IMG/VR virus record: IMGVR_UViG_3300029288_003766
Span: 25,787 to 89,786 of that record
Source of the DNA: a virus
Lineage: Duplodnaviria; Heunggongvirae; Uroviricota; Caudoviricetes
Length of the DNA: 64,000 nt
Direction: 5' to 3' (one strand)
The position numbers were made by a program, and so were the translations under genes. The notes under the pieces were generated by a model, which had not been told where the DNA came from, did not search any database, and saw nothing but the letters and a program-made list of their open reading frames with translations. Positions 4,483-58,619 of the stretch are shown here, in pieces; within the stretch, counting starts at the first letter, position 1; the number at the start of each line of letters is the position of its first letter.

Positions 4483-4761
4483 TTATGCCTCCATATTATA
4501 CAGTTTATCTATGACCAACTGCATCCGTTCTCTTCCTGATGGGTTCATACTTACTATTACTATTTTTCCGGGTAGATACTGTAAGTTTTGTTCTAACCAG
4601 CACAAAATGTCATAGCCTGTCTTAGGATCGTACCCTAAATCATGATCTAAATAAACTACATCCCATTTCTCTTCTTTAAGGGCATTGATTGCTTCATCGT
4701 AGGTTCTTACAGTCTTGCAACAGCCGAAATTTCGCACATCATCTATCAATAAATCTTTCAT
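4483..4761 (-). CDS. receiver-like (CheY-fold-like) small protein, possibly cyclic-phosphate-processing receiver-type
   Basis: 92 aa with LLIDDVRNF ... DVVYLDHDLG ... GYDIL spacing reminiscent of a divergent receiver domain. Confidence 0.4.
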   Translation of the reverse strand: MKDLLIDDVRNFGCCKTVRTYDEAINALKEEKWDVVYLDHDLGYDPKTGYDILCWLEQNLQYLPGKIVIVSMNPSGRERMQLVIDKLYNMEA

Positions 4762-5501
4762 TACTTCTCCTGTTTCATTTCTTTTGTGATGTTAAAACTT
4801 CTTAATCTCTTATTAAAATCTTTCCTCACCTCAGGTAAATATTGATTTTTTTGAATCAGTTTATAAAGTATGGGGTCTCCTAATCTGATTCTCTGCTCCA
4901 GCTCTTTTACTCTCTTGCTAATGTAGGTCTCACCCGGCAACCCCCTCAGCATATCTCCCATTATTAATAAGATCCTATGAACCAAAGCCTGTTGGTAAGC
5001 CATAGTCATATCGTGAACTTTTCGGTTAGAGAACCAAACTATTTGTGAATCAGTAATTTCTTTTACGGCATTGACTAATCTTAGACTGCCAATCCATTGG
5101 TCATAATCGATTAAAGCAACACTGCGATCTTTTTTGTCCGGGGTATTTGAAGGGCGGAATAGGATATGCATAGAGAGTAATATGAAATCGGACTTTATAG
5201 CGTTCTTCCAAATCTCTTTATATATCTTCTCTTTTAAAGAGCATTGCTCAATGACTGTCTTAAATCTTATATATTTAGCATACTTCTTAAACCAAGCCAC
5301 TGTATCTTGCATTGGAATACAGAGGAATATCACGTCAGATTTTTTGATCCTAGCAATTTTCTCTTGTTCTGTTTCATTAATATCAAAACACCAAATATCC
5401 TTTGCCTTCGGCATTGATCTTAATAGTCCTTGGAGTATGAACGATCCTATCTCACCTTTGTAGCCCACTACTAATGGAGCTTTGAACGGCATCTCTTGCA
5501 T
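4761..5501 (-). CDS. Rossmann-fold NAD(P)-binding protein (prephenate/arogenate dehydrogenase-like N-terminus)
   Basis: N-terminal VVGYKGEIGSFILQGL fits a GxGxxG dinucleotide-binding loop; 246 aa. Confidence 0.45.
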   Translation of the reverse strand: MQEMPFKAPLVVGYKGEIGSFILQGLLRSMPKAKDIWCFDINETEQEKIARIKKSDVIFLCIPMQDTVAWFKKYAKYIRFKTVIEQCSLKEKIYKEIWKNAIKSDFILLSMHILFRPSNTPDKKDRSVALIDYDQWIGSLRLVNAVKEITDSQIVWFSNRKVHDMTMAYQQALVHRILLIMGDMLRGLPGETYISKRVKELEQRIRLGDPILYKLIQKNQYLPEVRKDFNKRLRSFNITKEMKQEK

Positions 5502-25569: not shown

Positions 25570-26258
25570 AAAAAGGCGACGGACTGGATATTGGAAATCG
25601 GATGAAGCAGTATGAGAATATAACCGAAGCTCATCTGACTAGAAGAGTGCCTGTTATAGTTAGAGTAGATGGAAGAGCTTTTCACACCATAACTCGGACA
25701 AGGTTTAAGAGAGCATGGTCCCAAGAGTTTGTGGACCAGATGTCCGAGGTAGCTATGGTTGTCCAAGGAGATATGCAAGGTTGTGATTTCTGCTATGCCC
25801 AATCAGATGAGATCTCTTTTCTTTTAACCGATTACAAGACTATACGTACACAACCTTGGTTTGATTATGATCTTAGGAAGATAATCTCAATATCAGCTTC
25901 ATTAGCCAGTAGTGTATTTTCGAGGATTTATGGCAAGAATGTAGCCTTTGACAGCCGAGCGTTTAATATGCCTCAAGATGAGGTAGTAAATTACTTTATT
26001 TGGAGGCAGATAGATGCTACGCGCAACGCTATTCAGATGGCTGGCAGGGAGTACTTTTCCCACAAGGAATTAAATAATCTTAGCTGTAATGAAATACAAG
26101 AGAAGCTGTTTAAAGAGAAAGAGATCAATTTTAATGATTACCCTACTATAAGGAAGAGAGGATTTACTGTTATCAAGGGTGCTATTGATATTGGTATTCC
26201 TATCTTTACTCAGGATAGAAACTATGTTGAGAAGTTTGTTAATGTTCGAGAGGATTAA
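25554..26258 (+). CDS. Thg1-like protein (tRNA-His guanylyltransferase family, 3'-5' polymerase)
   Basis: VIVRVDGRAFH, AQSDEISF, SASLASSVFS and FIWRQIDATRN align with conserved Thg1/TLP blocks. True start may be the ATG at 25566 (ATGA overlap). Confidence 0.75.
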   Translation: MEKTMKKGDGLDIGNRMKQYENITEAHLTRRVPVIVRVDGRAFHTITRTRFKRAWSQEFVDQMSEVAMVVQGDMQGCDFCYAQSDEISFLLTDYKTIRTQPWFDYDLRKIISISASLASSVFSRIYGKNVAFDSRAFNMPQDEVVNYFIWRQIDATRNAIQMAGREYFSHKELNNLSCNEIQEKLFKEKEINFNDYPTIRKRGFTVIKGAIDIGIPIFTQDRNYVEKFVNVRED

Positions 26259-48581: not shown

Positions 48582-49232
48582 AAACGTACAGGGGGCTCAT
48601 GTGTTCAGATGCATATGGACGTAGTACCCCTACCCAAAGGGTTTAGCTACAGGGTTGGAAGGATGCTAAAATGAGCTTGTTGTACCAAGAGTTCCTAAAG
48701 AAGAAGTTGATTAAAAAGATTATTGCTCTTTTGAGATATATTAAATGCCACGAACAGAGATATAAAACTGGCAAAAGATAAGCGATTCTGCTATCGTTAA
48801 AGTGGAATACCGTGCGACCCTTAATCGCAATTGGATATTGATGACCCTCAATGACTTGTTCATTTAGGATCAACATATAAAAAAACTCAAGGCTTAAGAA
48901 AGTAAGACCAAAGTGAGTAAGGCTCAAAACCGGTAAGGGAGTAAGAGTACAGGTAGTAAGGCTAAACTTGAAAGCTCTGGCAAGTACGACAGCCAACTGA
49001 TTTTACTTGACAGTAAGTGAGTAGAGAACGACCTGGAACAAGTTATGTTTGCTTATTTTTCCCAACCAGAACTTTTCAGGCTTCCTGATTTGGGGGCATT
49101 TATAAATTTAGGGGCGGGCGAAAAAGGGGCTGATGACAACAAGAGTGTTTTATCTTGGCTCTTAGTAGCTACGGTTGAATACGTAGGCGTTGACAACCTA
49201 CCGTCCCAAAGAGATAAATAAGGAGGGGTAAA
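48582..49232. other. 650-bp gene-free region with GTAAG iteron cluster and G-rich boxes (candidate replication origin or ncRNA locus)
   Basis: No credible plus-strand ORF. GTAAG at 48901, 48916, 48932, 48940, 48955 and 49012. AGTAAGGCT-AAA repeated twice. GGGGCAT / AGGGGCGGGCG / AGGGGCTG boxes at 49091-49130. Confidence 0.4.
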
Positions 49233-51439: not shown

Positions 51440-51998
51440 TAAACCAATATCTAAAATAGTTGCTTTGGTGGGTGCGCCGGCCTGTGGTAAGACAACTCTA
51501 TCACTTAATTTGGTAACACAATTGAAGGTCAGAAACAAGAATGCTAAATATATCTTAGAATATCCTAGGGATTATATAGAGAAATATGGGCATCCACAAC
51601 ATATCTCTGAGCAGATGCTTATATTTCTTGGGTGGAACAGGCTGTTAGATAACGCTGCTGGCATACGATATGATTATCTTATTTGTGATAGTCCTGTATT
51701 TATTTCTTATGTGTATGGTGTATACAAGAGTGATCCCTCAGTACCTAAAGATAGGATGTGGATATTAGAATTGTTGGGTATGGCTTTAGAATCTATCCAA
51801 ATGTATGATAAAATATTCTACATTAGGCCGGGTAGAGAATTTCCAATTAAAGATAATTTAAGACATTCAAATCTTGACATTCAGAAGAAAATAGATGATA
51901 ATATACGCGGCTTCTTGAATTTGTATAAAGTGCCTTATGAAGAAATTGTTAACACAGATTTAAAGAAGAGCACAGATTATATTATATCGAGGATATAA
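51429..51998 (+). CDS. P-loop NTPase, putative nucleoside/nucleotide kinase (NadR-like)
   Basis: Walker A ALVGAPACGKTT near N-terminus, 189 aa. Confidence 0.45.
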   Translation: MKNDKPISKIVALVGAPACGKTTLSLNLVTQLKVRNKNAKYILEYPRDYIEKYGHPQHISEQMLIFLGWNRLLDNAAGIRYDYLICDSPVFISYVYGVYKSDPSVPKDRMWILELLGMALESIQMYDKIFYIRPGREFPIKDNLRHSNLDIQKKIDDNIRGFLNLYKVPYEEIVNTDLKKSTDYIISRI

Positions 51999-52098
51999 TG
52001 AATAAAGTGGAAGCTAATATTTTTGTTAAGTTTTTGATAATTATTGCTGTTCTCGCCGCGTTCGCTATTTACCTTGGGCAGCATAGCAAATAAAATTT

Positions 52099-52365
52099 GG
52101 GGCATAGAGAGTTCCTATTAACTTTCTCATACAAAGACAATACTCTCCGCCCCTTGATTACGGGACATAAAGAGTTCCTATACTTGTTAGAAGGCAGCCC
52201 TTCGGGGCTGCATCAAAATTACTCTTCGTCCCTAATAACTAGGCAAAGGAAGTTCCTATTAAAATGGAAAATGTCCCCGAAAGGGGACACTTAAAATACT
52301 TCCCGCCTTATAATTTGGACATCGGGAGTTCCTATTAAAATCCTGTTAAGATATACTCCCCGTCC
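52099..52365 (+). repeat. tandem array of four degenerate ~65-80-bp units (GGRCAT..AGAGTTCCTAT ... AATACTCYCCGYCC)
   Basis: AGTTCCTAT at 52110, 52173, 52251 and 52327. ACTCYCCGYCC at 52142, 52221, 52298 and 52355. Units 2 and 3 each carry an inserted perfect hairpin, GCAGCCC-TTCG-GGGCTGC at 52194-52211 and GTCCCC-GAAA-GGGGAC at 52273-52288. Confidence 0.6.
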
Positions 52366-52386
52366 ATTTTATAAAAGGATGGATAG

Positions 52387-54141
52387 ATGAAATTTACAGA
52401 TGGTGTATATGGATATATTTATTTGGTACTTGATTTGGTAACTGGAATGCGTTATATTGGTAAGCACAAAAGCGGGGGGAAAATGAATCAATCAATAATA
52501 CGGTTATTTCATGCAGTTTCAATTGATAAGCATGACGGTAAGGCGGTTAACAAAAAATTGTTGTCAGAAACCGTCAAAAAAGGATTTATTTTTGCTCCTG
52601 AAGTAACAGCAAACTATTCTGAGAAAGAGTTGTTTGCTATGATTAATATCGTTGCTGATGAAGTAGGTTTAAGTTCTGATAAAATGAATAGTTCTTTTCA
52701 TAAATCGTGGCAAAAAGTGCGTGACGCTGATATTGAGCAATTAGTCCTCGAACAGATATTGCACTACATCACTACTTATGGTTTTGAAGCTATGGGTATT
52801 TATAGGAATGACTCTATCTACATTCCTCTTGAAGATTTAAAAATTCCTAAGTTAAACCTTGACAAAATATCTTTAGTTGTTATTAAAGGATATACCAAAG
52901 AAGAATTAAAGGAAAAATTAATCAACCTTTTGGGATCGGGCATTGCGTTAAAAGAGGATACAAAGAAAGATGTGATAGATATTATTACCTTTGTTGGCTT
53001 AAACGAGAACGAGGTATACAACATCAAGAATAAGGAAGTAAGGGCTGCCTTATACGATTATATGGATATATGTCCTATGCCTGAGGATTACCTTAATTCT
53101 ATTACTGCTTTATTGAAGCACGGAGTGGATATAGATAAGGATAATCTTATGAAAGAGCTTGGTAGAGTAAACACCTTTAGGAAGATACGATTAGCTTACG
53201 CTTTAAAGTATAGGACTAATGATAATGATGGGGTAGTAGTTGACTCAATACTTTACCGCATAAGGAATGGCAAGAGCTACGCTACAGGTTTTGATCTTGA
53301 TGACCCTAAAGGAATCATATTTAGGAATACAGTAAGAATATTAGATATTGTCCTTGATTCAATGGTGGATGATATTAGGCCTAATGTAGAAGGTAAGAAG
53401 ATCTGCATTCCTAAGAACATACAATATGCTTTGCCTACTACTGAGAAACAGTTTACCGGAGATTTCCCTTCAGGAACCTATGTTTCTTTCCCTAAGGATG
53501 CAATTGTGGGGGTTCACTGGGGTGATGTTGATTCTAACAGGATAGATCTTGACCTGTCTTTAATCAGGTGCGACGGTGGAAAGATTGGGTGGGATGCTTC
53601 TTACAGGAGTAAGGGCGGAGATACATTGTTCTCCGGTGATATGACTGCAGCTCCTAAGCCTAATGGTGCCTCAGAATTGTTTTATATCCAGAGGCAGACT
53701 AATGCTTCTTATATTCTTATGGTCAATTACTTTAACTATGATCAGGCTGTTCCTGTGCCTTTTAAGATTATTGTGGCCAGTGAGCAGGTTAATAAGGTCT
53801 TTGGCCATAACTATATGATTAACCCCAATAATATAGTCTGTGTTGCTAAGTCTAAAATGACTGAGAAACAGAAAGTACTTGGGCTACTGGTTACAACTCC
53901 CGATGAGTGTAGATTCTACTTTGCTGAGGCAAATATGGGTAATTCAATAACATCGGATGGTAATACTTATACAGAACAGGCACGAAAGTATTTGTTTGAT
54001 TTCTACACAAACACAATCAGCTTTAATGATATCTTGAGGAGGGCGGGAGCTGTGTTAGTAGGTAAGCAGAAGGATTGTGATATTGACCTTTCATATGAAA
54101 CGCTTGAGAAAGATAGTTTGATTAAGTTGATAACTAAGTGA
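52387..54141 (+). CDS. large protein with N-terminal GIY-YIG-like module fused to uncharacterised C-terminal region (584 aa)
   Basis: N-terminus GVYGYIYLVLDLVTGMRYIGKHK is GIY-YIG-like. The remaining 500 aa match nothing I recognise. Confidence 0.5.
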   Translation: MKFTDGVYGYIYLVLDLVTGMRYIGKHKSGGKMNQSIIRLFHAVSIDKHDGKAVNKKLLSETVKKGFIFAPEVTANYSEKELFAMINIVADEVGLSSDKMNSSFHKSWQKVRDADIEQLVLEQILHYITTYGFEAMGIYRNDSIYIPLEDLKIPKLNLDKISLVVIKGYTKEELKEKLINLLGSGIALKEDTKKDVIDIITFVGLNENEVYNIKNKEVRAALYDYMDICPMPEDYLNSITALLKHGVDIDKDNLMKELGRVNTFRKIRLAYALKYRTNDNDGVVVDSILYRIRNGKSYATGFDLDDPKGIIFRNTVRILDIVLDSMVDDIRPNVEGKKICIPKNIQYALPTTEKQFTGDFPSGTYVSFPKDAIVGVHWGDVDSNRIDLDLSLIRCDGGKIGWDASYRSKGGDTLFSGDMTAAPKPNGASELFYIQRQTNASYILMVNYFNYDQAVPVPFKIIVASEQVNKVFGHNYMINPNNIVCVAKSKMTEKQKVLGLLVTTPDECRFYFAEANMGNSITSDGNTYTEQARKYLFDFYTNTISFNDILRRAGAVLVGKQKDCDIDLSYETLEKDSLIKLITK

Positions 54142-55125: not shown

Positions 55126-55521
55126 ATGGAAGATAAGAAAAAACTCTTTTATTACTTAGATAATATCTACATCAAGAAAGAGATTCCAGATGATTCAGAA
55201 ATAAGATCTCTGGTATGGCCGATTAACCGCTTCTTAAGTATGGAGAAGGATCTTCTTAAGGAAGTTGCTGAGCTTTCCAAATATATGTTCACATTGGGCG
55301 CTCAATATTATAAATTGTTATTGCGGGTAGTCCCAAAACTTAACCGATCTCCGAGAAATAAATATATTAAAGTAGAGAAAGAAGTTGATGATGATCTTTT
55401 AGATAGATATACTCAGTATTTCCAATTGAGCCGGCGAGAAGTCAGAGATTATTTGAAAATACTATTTAAACAGCGTAGTAAAAAAGAGATATATGAGTTT
55501 GTGGGCCTTGAGGCTAAATGA
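55126..55521 (+). CDS. hypothetical protein (131 aa)
   Basis: Coupled ORF. Confidence 0.45.
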   Translation: MEDKKKLFYYLDNIYIKKEIPDDSEIRSLVWPINRFLSMEKDLLKEVAELSKYMFTLGAQYYKLLLRVVPKLNRSPRNKYIKVEKEVDDDLLDRYTQYFQLSRREVRDYLKILFKQRSKKEIYEFVGLEAK

Positions 55522-56153
55522 TGGTATATGGGTATATTTATGAAACAATGAACAGACATAACGGAATGATTTATATTGGGAAATTAAAAGGAAAATTTAA
55601 CTCATCATATTATGGTAGTGGTGTTGTTCTAAATCTAGCTATAAATAAGTATGGAAAAGATAGTTTTGCAATAAGAATAATTGATTACGCTGAAACTAAA
55701 CACCGTTTGAATAAAATGGAGAAGGCCTACATTTCAGCTTATCGAACAGTATACGGAAAAGAAAGTATGTATAATATTTCCGATGGTGGAGATGGCGGTG
55801 GTGGTTGTAAGTATCATAAAATAAATTGTGATTGCGGGTTTTGCAAAGCCCAACGGGGTGAGGCTAAAAAAGAAGATAATCCATTTTTTAATAAACATCA
55901 TTCTGAAAAAACGAGAAAGAAGATGAGTTTAGCTAAGAAAATACAACCATCACCTGGAATGACTGGTAAACATCATTCAAAAGAATCAAATGATAAGAAT
56001 AGATGTGCTCATATGGGGGTAATTCCAGCTAATAAAGGAAAAAAGGGTTTACAGATAGCTTGGAATAAAGGCCTCACTAAAGAAACTGATGAACGAGTTA
56101 GGAAAAATATACAAAATCGAATAGAAAATTACAAGAAAAATAAGACATTTTAA
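55518..56153 (+). CDS. GIY-YIG homing endonuclease with NUMOD3 repeats
   Basis: VYGYIYETMNRHNGMIYIGK, YNISDGGDGGGG, CDCGFCKAQRGE zinc knuckle, basic NUMOD3-like repeats. Confidence 0.75.
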   Translation: MMVYGYIYETMNRHNGMIYIGKLKGKFNSSYYGSGVVLNLAINKYGKDSFAIRIIDYAETKHRLNKMEKAYISAYRTVYGKESMYNISDGGDGGGGCKYHKINCDCGFCKAQRGEAKKEDNPFFNKHHSEKTRKKMSLAKKIQPSPGMTGKHHSKESNDKNRCAHMGVIPANKGKKGLQIAWNKGLTKETDERVRKNIQNRIENYKKNKTF

Positions 56154-56177: not shown

Positions 56178-58619
56178 ATGACTAATATCTCTGATCTTAT
56201 CTCTGTCCATAAAGACAACGCTCACAAACGTGCCCAATGCTCTGAATGTCCTTATATAGGCAGAACATTTGTCCCAGCTAGTGTCTCCCCTCATAGTGAT
56301 CTTATTATTGTTGGAGAGGCCCCGGGGCAAAGTGAGGCGTCGCAGGGTACTCCTTTTGTCGGAGAAAGCGGTCAGTTGCTTAGGAGAACTTTACATGATG
56401 TGGGTTTCGACGTTCCAAGCATTACATTCACGAACGCATGCCATTGCCACCCTCCGGGCAACGAACAACCTCATAAGAAGGCGCAAGATCTTTGCACCAA
56501 GATGTATTTGTTCAATGAAATAAAAGAGCTCAAGCCAAAACTAGTTGTGCTTGCTGGCTCAACAGCCTTAAATATTTTCTTTCCAAAAGAAAAGATAATG
56601 AACAAGGCGGGCAACTTCTTAGAAGCTCAGGGTATGAGGTTTTTGCCTGTTCTTCACCCCGCTTACTGCTTAAGAAATCCCATGTCTGTTCCGAGACTAA
56701 GAAAGGATTTAAAAAAGGCTTACCAGTATCTTAATAATGAAATGTCTGATAAGCATAATTTTATTGTTGTAGATACTATAGAGAAGCTTGAGGGTGCCCG
56801 CCAAGATTTGGTTATTAGGCCCCCCGATGTAATGGCTTTTGATGTTGAAACTAATGAGCTCTTAGATGTATTTGATAAAAATATGGTCTTATGGGCTATC
56901 GGTTTTAGTGCCGGCGACGATAAATGTTATTCTATTCCTCTTGATCACCCTGAAAATGATAATATTGAATTTAGAGGGATGTGTTGGGATCTTGCAAAAA
57001 CAACTTTGGGGAACGCTGCTAAGAAAATAGCTCATAATGCTGCTTTTGATCTAAAAGTACTCAAAAAAATGGGTATTGGCTACAAGAACTTCTACGCGGA
57101 TACGATGGTAATGGCTTTTTTACTGGATGAAAACAGATATTCTGTAGGTTTGAAACAGTTATCATCAGAATACTTAGACGGCTGTATGTATGAATTTACT
57201 AAAGATCTTAAAAACCTATGTGTATACAATTCCGAGGACTGTAATAACACAATAGGTCTTTTCCATAAATTTGAACCAGAACTTATAATATACCAGAGAT
57301 TATGGATCCTATTTGAGAAGATCCTGATGCCAATGATTGAAGTAATTGTAGATATGGAACTGGATGGTGTATTTATAGACACAAAAGCAAGTAGTAAACT
57401 GACTGTTGATCTTCATAGAAAGTTGGATGCGGTTTATGAAAGTATAGCAGATAAGTTCCCGCAAGCTAATGGTGTTAATCTTAACTCTACTAAGCAGCTT
57501 CGTGAACTTATGTTTGAGAAATTAAAGTACCCTCAGGGAAGATTGACAGATAAGGGTGAACTTTTAGCAAAGGTTAGAGGCGGCAGACATAGATTAACAA
57601 AAGAAGAACTTAAAGATAATTTAAGTACAGATAATGAAGTGTTGGAGAGTCTATCACATAAAGGGCATAAACTAGCGACTTATTTATTAAAGATTCGTAA
57701 ATATGAGAAGTTGCTCTCTACCTATGTGGAAAAACTACCTAAGATAATTAAGGATGATGGTAAGATACACGGTCATTTTAATCTTACAGGAGCTCGCACA
57801 GGTAGAACATCATCTAGCGATCCAAATCTCCAAAACATACCCACAGATAAGTTAGTCAAGGGTATGTTTGTAGCTTCACCGGGTAATATGTTATTACAAG
57901 CAGACTTCTCACAGGCCGAATTGCGAGTTGGTTGTTCTATTGCTAATGAACCAACGATGATAAAAGCCTACCAGGAGGGGAGGGATGTACATAAACTAAC
58001 TGCTTCTAAAGCTCTCGGTGTTGATGAAGATGCTGTTACAAAAGCACAAAGGCAAATAGCTAAGGGAATTAACTTTGGTTTCATCTACGGTGCGTCTGCT
58101 GAGGGGTTCCAAAGGCTGATGGAACATGATTATGGTATTAAACTATCATTAGAGGAGTGCGTTAACTTCAGGCAGGCGTATTTTGCTACTTACTCTGGTT
58201 TTCTTAGCTGGTATGATAGAATACGGGATTCTTTAAGAGAGTTTGGATATGTTGAGTATCCTACGGGGAGATTTAGAAGGTTTCCTGAAGTAAAGGGTAA
58301 AGATAGAATACCTGATGATATATTTAGGCAGGCTGCTAACAGCCCTGTTCAAGGATCATCAAGTGATATTTTATTATTTACTATGGTTAAGATAAAGAAA
58401 ATAATAAAAAAATACAAATTATCGGTGAAGATTATTTTGACTGTGCATGATTCTATAGTATTTGATGGGCCGGAGGATGATTTAAGATCTATTATTGTGC
58501 CTGAGATGAATAATATATGTGTTGATGACGTACCGAAACAATTTGGATGGCTTAAGGTCCCAATGAAATTTGATTATTCAATAGGTCCTAATTGGGGGGA
58601 GCTTGCGGAAATAAAGTAA
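56178..58619 (+). CDS. family A DNA polymerase with N-terminal UDG-superfamily (family-4-like) domain and 3'-5' exonuclease domain
   Basis: N-term GEAPGQSEA...PFVGESGQLL and VLHPAYCLRNP (UDG family 4-like motifs). Exo motif MAFDVETNEL. Pol motif A LLQADFSQAELRV, motif B KGINFGFIYGAS, motif C LTVHDSIVFD. Confidence 0.85.
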   Translation: MTNISDLISVHKDNAHKRAQCSECPYIGRTFVPASVSPHSDLIIVGEAPGQSEASQGTPFVGESGQLLRRTLHDVGFDVPSITFTNACHCHPPGNEQPHKKAQDLCTKMYLFNEIKELKPKLVVLAGSTALNIFFPKEKIMNKAGNFLEAQGMRFLPVLHPAYCLRNPMSVPRLRKDLKKAYQYLNNEMSDKHNFIVVDTIEKLEGARQDLVIRPPDVMAFDVETNELLDVFDKNMVLWAIGFSAGDDKCYSIPLDHPENDNIEFRGMCWDLAKTTLGNAAKKIAHNAAFDLKVLKKMGIGYKNFYADTMVMAFLLDENRYSVGLKQLSSEYLDGCMYEFTKDLKNLCVYNSEDCNNTIGLFHKFEPELIIYQRLWILFEKILMPMIEVIVDMELDGVFIDTKASSKLTVDLHRKLDAVYESIADKFPQANGVNLNSTKQLRELMFEKLKYPQGRLTDKGELLAKVRGGRHRLTKEELKDNLSTDNEVLESLSHKGHKLATYLLKIRKYEKLLSTYVEKLPKIIKDDGKIHGHFNLTGARTGRTSSSDPNLQNIPTDKLVKGMFVASPGNMLLQADFSQAELRVGCSIANEPTMIKAYQEGRDVHKLTASKALGVDEDAVTKAQRQIAKGINFGFIYGASAEGFQRLMEHDYGIKLSLEECVNFRQAYFATYSGFLSWYDRIRDSLREFGYVEYPTGRFRRFPEVKGKDRIPDDIFRQAANSPVQGSSSDILLFTMVKIKKIIKKYKLSVKIILTVHDSIVFDGPEDDLRSIIVPEMNNICVDDVPKQFGWLKVPMKFDYSIGPNWGELAEIK

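Follow-up and report, generated by a model that had tools for sequence, protein, structure and literature searches.

The window analysed here is a stretch of 64,000 nucleotides (nt) from a virus of the Caudoviricetes (IMG/VR record IMGVR_UViG_3300029288_003766, positions 25,787 to 89,786 of that record), and it holds a tandem array of four bulged RNA hairpins in the 291-nt gap between a small open reading frame (ORF) that ends at 52095 and a 584-codon ORF that starts at 52387. The RNA fold of these hairpins, its location on the + strand, its conservation across a whole family of such elements, found in hundreds of phages and in some bacteria, and its near-obligate linkage to one protein family are established. 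We consider it fairly probable that the array represents four paralogous Y-RNA-like genes of ~50-70 nt, partnered with the Ro60-like/TerD protein encoded downstream. RNA and protein together are probably an unrecognised and widespread relative of the Ro60/Y RNA particle of RNA quality control and repair. Ro60/Y RNA particles occur in animals, in several hundred bacterial species and in a few mycobacteriophages, and their role in bacteria is only partly understood.

Within the array, the repeat family starts at 52097, 52160, 52238 and 52314 (spacing 63, 78 and 76 nt), and all units share one plan: an outer stem P1 of 4-5 base pairs (bp), an internal loop of three nucleotides opposite one, an inner stem P2 of 5 bp, a loop, and then the returning strands P2', C and P1'. 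In all four the loop (27-47 nt) begins with UUCCUAU and ends with (A/U)UA. An earlier note on this DNA had placed four repeat units here, each with a pair of boxes, and both the units and their place were confirmed by reading of the sequence, by the repeat family and by scores from R1, a covariance model built from 26 short units of other contigs. What had been overlooked is that the boxes of a unit are complementary: they covary and pair into a single bulged stem. The units and the hairpins inserted in their loops are:

52099..52153, + strand: unit 1, GGGGC-AUA-GAGAG ... CUCUC-C-GCCCC; P1 52099-52103/52149-52153, bulge AUA 52104-52106 opposite C 52148, P2 52107-52111/52143-52147; R1 59.6 bits, E 4e-13; minimum-free-energy fold.
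52112-52142, + strand: loop of unit 1, first UUCCUAU, last AAUA.
52162..52232, + strand: unit 2, GGGAC-AUA-AAGAG ... CUCUU-C-GUCCC; P1 52162-52166/52228-52232, bulge AUA opposite C 52227, P2 52170-52174/52222-52226; R1 35.3 bits.
52194-52211, + strand: hairpin inserted in the loop of unit 2, 7-bp stem 52194-52200/52205-52211, UUCG tetraloop.
52241..52308, + strand: unit 3, AGGC-AAA-GGAAG ... CUUCC-C-GCCU; P1 52241-52244/52305-52308, bulge AAA opposite C 52304, P2 52248-52252/52299-52303; R1 45.4 bits.
52272-52289, + strand: hairpin inserted in the loop of unit 3, 7-bp stem 52272-52278/52283-52289, GAAA tetraloop.
52316..52366, + strand: unit 4, UGGAC-AUC-GGGAG ... CUCCC-C-GUCCA; P1 52316-52320/52362-52366, bulge AUC opposite C 52361, P2 52324-52328/52356-52360; R1 56.4 bits.
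52329-52355, + strand: loop of unit 4, UUCCUAUUAAAAUCCUGUUAAGAUAUA, a loop type found near-identical in other contigs.

The two tetraloop hairpins named in the earlier note are real, each a true 7-bp stem, but they are not the core of the element: they sit within the loops of units 2 and 3 only and are optional inserts of a variable loop. What the four units share is pairing, kept through compensatory changes at 5 of the 10 stem positions at a mean column identity of 63%. The array folds into four independent hairpins (z = -5.3 against shuffles). R1, a model made from the copies of other contigs, scored all four units (E values from 4e-13 to 4e-6), and the array is therefore well beyond chance; with filters off, unit 2 received 23.1 bits (E 0.001), and no significant match besides the array was found in the 64-kb window. 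The further AGAGTTCCTA box that had been noted near 48690 is a chance occurrence: the 8-mer is present seven times in the window against 3.1 expected, with four of the seven in the array, and R1 gives the site 10.9 bits (E 3.3).

Several smaller likenesses were seen in the units. One recurrent loop type, AAAAUCCUGUUAAGAU (window 52329-52355; recurring types are carried by the unrelated contigs L123, L124, L126, L135, L118 and L059), forms a 3-bp stem with a 7-nt loop, CUGUUAA, that has the look of an anticodon loop, and another recurrent class has an AUUGG loop resembling a D-loop. The G-UUCC junction can be likened to a T-loop or to a minihelix (acceptor plus T-arm), with a topology that differs from that of tRNA. 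A K-turn reading of the 3-nt bulge was rejected because no tandem G.A pairs are present, and the likeness of GAAGTTCCTATTC to a yeast FLP/FRT half-site was treated as coincidence.

When viral contigs were first scanned for pairs of AGTTCCTAT boxes at a distance of 45-75 nt, many of the matches were due to chance, yet more than 12 contigs carried arrays of the same bulged hairpin, located just upstream of a 520-670-codon ORF that is homologous to the window ORF from residue 33-35 on. The conservation in related genomes that had been proposed as a check is present. To avoid circularity, 80 viral loci were gathered through protein homology alone. R1 found 209 matches in them, 209 of 209 on the gene's strand and nearly all at most 600 nt upstream, and virtually every viral locus with sufficient upstream sequence had at least one match. 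A unit stands just upstream of the gene and on its strand in ~66 of 67 viral loci and in 39 of 45 loci from bacteria or metagenome-assembled genomes (MAGs), the orientation being that of the gene for 69 of 69 genome matches; the cultured phages S-CRM01, S-CBWM1 and Phass-1 show the linkage as well. This tie of the array to the downstream gene had been missed by the earlier note.

Among 150 units from the protein-fetched loci, 99.6% of pair cells are standard pairs, 371 pair cells are changed on both sides and all 9 pairs covary, while none of 500 shuffles reached the observed values and slid-partner controls were 37-59% paired. Moreover, the units contain 28 G.U or U.G pairs that would become A.C mismatches on the opposite strand, so the folded molecule is the + strand RNA. 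The idea that the array acts as RNA therefore holds. On the other hand, a reading at the DNA level, in which repeated boxes would serve as iterons, promoters, or a recombination or replication site, could appeal to the direct repeats with their conserved 9-mer and to a weak promoter-like match at the array edge. It is largely refuted by the covariation, and we regard it as hardly tenable: distant boxes pair, with compensatory changes and strand-specific G.U, the spacing of boxes is not fixed, and the viral and genome matches without exception share the orientation of the gene. Protein-binding iterons, which the earlier note had offered as one option, are not supported in view of the same pairing; a multi-promoter/terminator cassette, another of its options, likewise lacks support, given a box spacing that runs from 27 to more than 100 nt through loop inserts and the lack of a U-run after either GC hairpin; and the third, tandem small-RNA genes, comes nearest to the evidence.

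Readings of single parts of the array were tried and rejected as well. Taken as sigma-70 promoters (TTCCTA as -35, TATACT as -10), the boxes fit in unit 4 only (17-nt spacer), the spacers of the others being 21-36 nt, and the boxes pair; the UUCG and GAAA hairpins are not terminators, since no + strand U-run stands behind them. The array is also not CRISPR-like (clustered regularly interspaced short palindromic repeats), as had been stated: the repeats are degenerate, their spacing is 63/78/76, and CRISPR repeat models give sub-threshold chance matches only. A 65-codon ORF with a TTG start lies over units 1-3 (52097-52294); the earlier note had listed it as spurious and named its translation as a refuting result. 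Nothing supports it as a gene, since the constraint there is RNA pairing and arrays elsewhere vary in unit number and length. In S-CRM01 (L201 2785-2931, minus strand) an annotated hypothetical coding sequence, g173c, is antisense to two or three units upstream of g174, and is probably a spurious gene call.

Across the family the stem consensus is GGC-AUA-RGNAG-UUCCUA ... UA-CUNCY-C-GCC. Invariant or near-invariant positions are the C-G pair closing P1, two A's of the bulge, the bulged C and the G-C pair closing P2, together with UUCCU(A) on the 5' side and UA on the 3' side of the loop; no mutual information was found between the 5' and 3' conserved junction strands, so that no pairing between them was detected. 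Loop inserts range from 17 to over 100 nt, the linkers between units are AU-rich (6-20 nt across loci, 8-10 nt in the window), and the largest arrays comprise five units when matches of E 1e-4 or better are counted, and seven or more when weaker matches are included. No Rfam family matches the units. Such invariant nucleotides flanking a covarying stem, in tandem units upstream of one gene family, are also what tandem riboswitch aptamers might look like, with the junction as ligand pocket and the copies sharpening the response of the downstream gene. This we judge improbable: no expression platform is present (no terminator, and a ribosome-binding site that is not sequestered), the loop accepts inserts of the range just given, tRNA-like modules included, copies also lie downstream of genes and between tRNAs, and Rfam has no matching family.

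Between the end of the last unit and the start codon there are mostly 10-30 nt, with a purine-rich Shine-Dalgarno zone directly after the unit; in the window, unit 4 and ATG 52387 are 21 nt apart. With the array always upstream and on the same strand, this placement would suit cis-acting operators in the 5' untranslated region (UTR) that are never released, through which the encoded protein (autogenous control) or another factor represses or tunes downstream translation. Such operators are an unlikely explanation of the array, since some units are not in a 5' UTR at all: in S-CBWM1 they stand 2.5 kb upstream of the gene, between tRNA genes, in S-CRM01 just after the gene and in Phass-1 1.4 kb downstream of it, and a position downstream of the gene is also seen in L137, L174, L129 and L197. 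Furthermore, one unit (L140) begins 3 nt after a tRNA, and some units carry complete tRNA-like modules. As a second role of Y-RNA-like genes, an operator function is compatible with all of this.

Tandem RNA units directly upstream of a partner gene, on the same strand, are likewise a feature of type III toxin-antitoxin pairs (ToxIN), whose repeat RNA (ToxI) is processed by the downstream protein and neutralises it. That the window holds such a pair is very doubtful: its units are diverged paralogues (the 63% identity given above) kept by structure, not near-identical repeats, and no terminator separates RNA units and gene. The protein, with a predicted TerD fold and a predicted Ro-like fold, is unrelated in fold to ToxN/AbiEii-type toxins and has no nuclease signature and no PADLOC or Pfam match, and throughout the Chryseobacterium species the locus stably adjoins RtcB on the chromosome.

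A likeness to Y RNAs is seen in units with long loops. In the bacterial Y RNA YrlA, the two ends of the RNA form the stem that binds Ro60, and this stem is combined with a tRNA-like effector module that resembles a permuted tRNA (PMC4201824; 10.1101/312249). Long-loop units (loops of 90-100 nt) are found in L191, L164, L149, L180 and S-CRM01; here the usual P1/P2 stem encloses first a T-arm, then a closed acceptor hairpin and then a D-arm, which is a permuted order; the module is present in ~5 of 150 related units, plus S-CRM01. Against the Rfam YrlA model (RF02553) the first four scored 39-48 bits (E 8e-8 to 3.5e-5) and the S-CRM01 unit (L201 2616-2730) 35.9 bits, all YrlA matches having E values from 8e-8 to 2e-4. 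The authors of YrlA warn of tandem-tRNA false positives (PMC4201824). ARAGORN finds no tRNA genes in L191, L149 and L180 and places those of L164 elsewhere (1639-1715 and 4547-4845), so the long-loop units are not false positives of this kind. The four window units gave no match to the YrlA covariance model at E up to 10, and the R1 stem model found nothing beside the Ro gene of mycobacteriophage Bxz1. Y RNAs have been recognised by a position within ~4 kb of a Ro60 orthologue on the same strand (PMC4201824); the R1 matches are all on the strand of the gene (209 of 209 viral, 69 of 69 genome), with a neighbour that is Ro60-like by fold only.

In Tenacibaculum amylolyticum (L260 2548-2666) the arrangement is turned around: a tRNA of ordinary order has its anticodon loop replaced by the P2/bulge/P1 module of the units, in permuted order and capped at the P1 end. 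It corresponds to the YrlA-like units after circular permutation, and two or three normal units and the protein gene follow just downstream.

The genomic surroundings point in the same direction. Gene and array lie among tRNA genes of the same strand in both cyanophages that carry the protein and in about one third of viral loci, where the tRNA clusters often comprise 10-20 tRNAs. Cellular genomes and MAGs with the family include ~30 Chryseobacterium species, Tenacibaculum, Soonwooa and others, with units upstream on the same strand. Among the Chryseobacterium loci (L252-L283) RtcB was detected in 28, each time as the immediate upstream neighbour and on the same strand; for example, L280 (1240-2622) shows RtcB, then three RNA units, then the protein gene. 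RtcB-like genes are also present in viral loci L124 and L128 and in MAG loci L224 and L233. Bacterial RNA-repair operons are known to link Ro60 and Y RNAs with RtcB (PMC7790460; PMC7824862). Through RtcB adjacency and embedding in tRNA clusters, the context is thus typical of Ro/Y systems.

The partner gene in the window consists of two parts:

52483..54141, + strand: partner protein gene, 552 residues from ATG 52483, preceded by GGGGGG; homologues start here.
52387..52482, + strand: in-frame 32-codon N-terminal extension, a GIY-YIG remnant (VYGYIY...GMRYIGKHK) similar to an endonuclease of the window.

The ATG of the extension (52387) follows unit 4 by 21 nt, behind an AAAGGA Shine-Dalgarno-like site. 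The gene had been described as a GIY-YIG fusion, which applies to the first 32 codons only and not to the rest of the protein. Of 22 residues, 13 are identical between the extension and the N-terminus of the GIY-YIG/NUMOD3 endonuclease at 55518-56153, and homologues of the main protein lack the extension, which was probably left behind by a homing-endonuclease gene formerly inserted between array and gene.

At 90% identity, the family to which the protein belongs (~630 residues) comprises at least 1,856 clusters, none of them named and none with a Pfam domain. Pfam searches at E up to 1 gave no match for the window protein and 37 family members, TROVE, vWA_Ro60 and TerD included; PHROGs, NCBIfam and PADLOC have no family for the protein, and phmmer and profile searches of the PDB returned nothing. 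The single library match is a weak, local one of the TerD-like region to NF041916. AlphaFold2 models of the window protein (predicted local distance difference test score, pLDDT, 81) and of a full-length family member (pLDDT 85.5) show a helical N-terminal half and a C-terminal beta-sandwich domain. Ro60 is the best fold match of the N-terminal domain, and from the models the helical domain is predicted to be Ro60/TROVE-like and the C-terminal domain TerD-like.

Several points weigh against the reading of the array as Y-RNA-like genes with a Ro60-like partner: i) every YrlA match lies below the gathering score of 69 bits, as does our yardstick, the genuine YrlA upstream of the genuine Bxz1 Ro gene (32.5 bits); ii) the 5' strand GGC-A(U/A)A-RG (GGCAUARG) resembles the motif GNCGAAN0-1G proposed for binding of the bacterial Ro60 protein Rsr (PMC4201824) but does not fit it, position 5 being an invariant A where G is needed; iii) more than 90% of units, including all four of the window, lack the tRNA-like module; iv) in a comparison by hhalign of the family with 25 genuine TROVE proteins, gathered from Bxz1 gp220, the probability was 0.07%, so that homology is unsupported by sequence profiles and the protein-level link to Ro60 is one of fold alone, while the positive control Bxz1 gp220 matched TROVE at 9e-50; v) the window copy may be impaired or specialised, though its reading frame is intact; vi) expression, processing and binding of the units are predictions from sequence and structure. 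As to the fifth point, the window protein lacks a conserved helical segment of ~90 residues (after about residue 197 of 552) that is present in nearly all of 36 aligned homologues and holds the (Y)RFKP motif, one of the family's two most conserved peptides; with this segment gone and a foreign N-terminus of 32 residues, the copy is possibly impaired. The deletion joins two short, similar P-x-P-E stretches.

If the array is what we propose, the stem with its invariant junction (UUCCUA, UA) would most likely be the binding site of the protein encoded immediately downstream, and protein and RNAs would form a ribonucleoprotein of the Ro60/Y-RNA type. The variable loop would then be the effector part, which in relatives can be a full tRNA-like module, as in YrlA, whereas the window units would have kept a short hairpin at most and so would be mini-Y RNAs. 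A common transcript of the units and the gene, then cut in the AU-rich linkers, is probable, and protein bound at the last unit, just before the ribosome-binding site, may feed back on translation. The particle would act most plausibly in surveillance or repair of RNA, tRNA above all, during infection. A broader proposal, more speculative and on balance doubtful, is that these loci form a very large, hitherto unrecognised class of Ro-like ribonucleoproteins, mainly of large phages, in which a TROVE-like/TerD protein works with interchangeable mini-Y RNAs, their variable loops spanning anything from a bare hairpin to a full tRNA mimic, and is encoded in tRNA clusters to guard, repair or mimic tRNAs; for example, the particle might hand damaged tRNAs to RtcB or RNA ligases, or might decoy host anticodon nucleases.

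Compared with known Ro60 (Rsr)/Y RNA systems, especially YrlA and the shorter YrlB, the shared features are paired RNA ends, a bulged stem and a position beside the protein gene on the same strand; an optional tRNA-like module, circularly permuted and with its acceptor stem closed; several RNAs per locus; linkage to RtcB; and Ro60 as best fold match of the protein's N-terminal domain. On the other hand, the protein here is seen neither by the TROVE and vWA_Ro60 models that detect Ro60 (Pfam PF05731 and PF25045) nor by profile comparison, a TerD-like fold takes the place of the C-terminal vWA domain, the stem consensus is not that of Y RNAs (GNCGAAN0-1G), most of the RNAs are minimal hairpins without a tRNA-like module and stand in arrays, and the locus is often inside phage tRNA clusters. 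TerD-family proteins of tellurite resistance (Ter) differ in turn: no Pfam TerD match is obtained here, the domain is fused to a large helical domain of RNA-binding-like character, no other Ter genes are nearby, and the context is one of RNA and tRNA, not of membrane stress. Therefore, what is new is the protein with TerD in place of vWA, a stem consensus outside Rfam, the arrays of mini-hairpins and the tRNA-cluster location, while Ro60/Y RNA systems themselves are known, phages included. No description of the RNA or of the protein family was found in the searchable literature, although either may have been mentioned in RNA-repair or Ro60 reviews.

Should the proposal be true, at least 1,856 clusters of "hypothetical" proteins would gain a partner RNA and a testable function, and so likewise would a new structured RNA absent from Rfam. 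Y-RNA-like genes with a Ro60-like partner would unite three facts otherwise unexplained, namely a gene amid phage tRNA clusters, adjoining arrays of hairpin RNAs and a link to RtcB. The family moreover offers natural variants of one putative binding module, some of which include the tRNA-like domain and others not, with even a permuted form built into a normal tRNA, and two cultivable systems carry the locus, Chryseobacterium and the Synechococcus phage S-CRM01.

The window belongs to a phage-like metagenome contig of ~215 kb with a G+C content of ~37%, and its genes are on the + strand from ~15 kb onward. The array lies in a T4-style replication module with a DnaB-like helicase, a primase, a UvsW-like helicase, a clamp-loader ATPase, a family A DNA polymerase fused to a uracil-DNA-glycosylase domain, the GIY-YIG/NUMOD3 homing endonuclease, a gp32-like protein, a RecA-like protein and an RNA ligase. 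A tRNA scan of the 64-kb window found none, a megablast search of the array region against phage genomes gave no match, and Rfam returned nothing at gathering thresholds for the whole window and chance matches only for the array at E up to 10. At the upstream edge of the array lies one further feature:

52068..52096, + strand: weak sigma-70-like promoter match, TTTACC-17-TAAAAT, 9 of 12 positions; a consensus match only, ending 3 nt before unit 1.

Transcription of the array might begin here, as judged from the letters, with the number of sigma-70-like sites in the array region not above that of shuffles. Beside it, a 32-codon ORF (51998-52095) encodes a hydrophobic peptide, MNKVEANIFVKFLIIIAVLAAFAIYLGQHSK, ends 3 nt before unit 1 and overlaps the stop codon of an AAA_28/thymidylate-kinase-like gene. 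A second large non-coding gap (48582-49044, ~460 nt) contains several short GTAAG-like repeats around 48900-48970; neither an Rfam match (E up to 1) nor a unit of the array type was found in it. The PF09414 RNA ligase gene is located at 33200-34117, ~19 kb upstream of the array, and in the family A DNA polymerase (56178-58619) the domain of the uracil-DNA-glycosylase superfamily is at the N-terminus.
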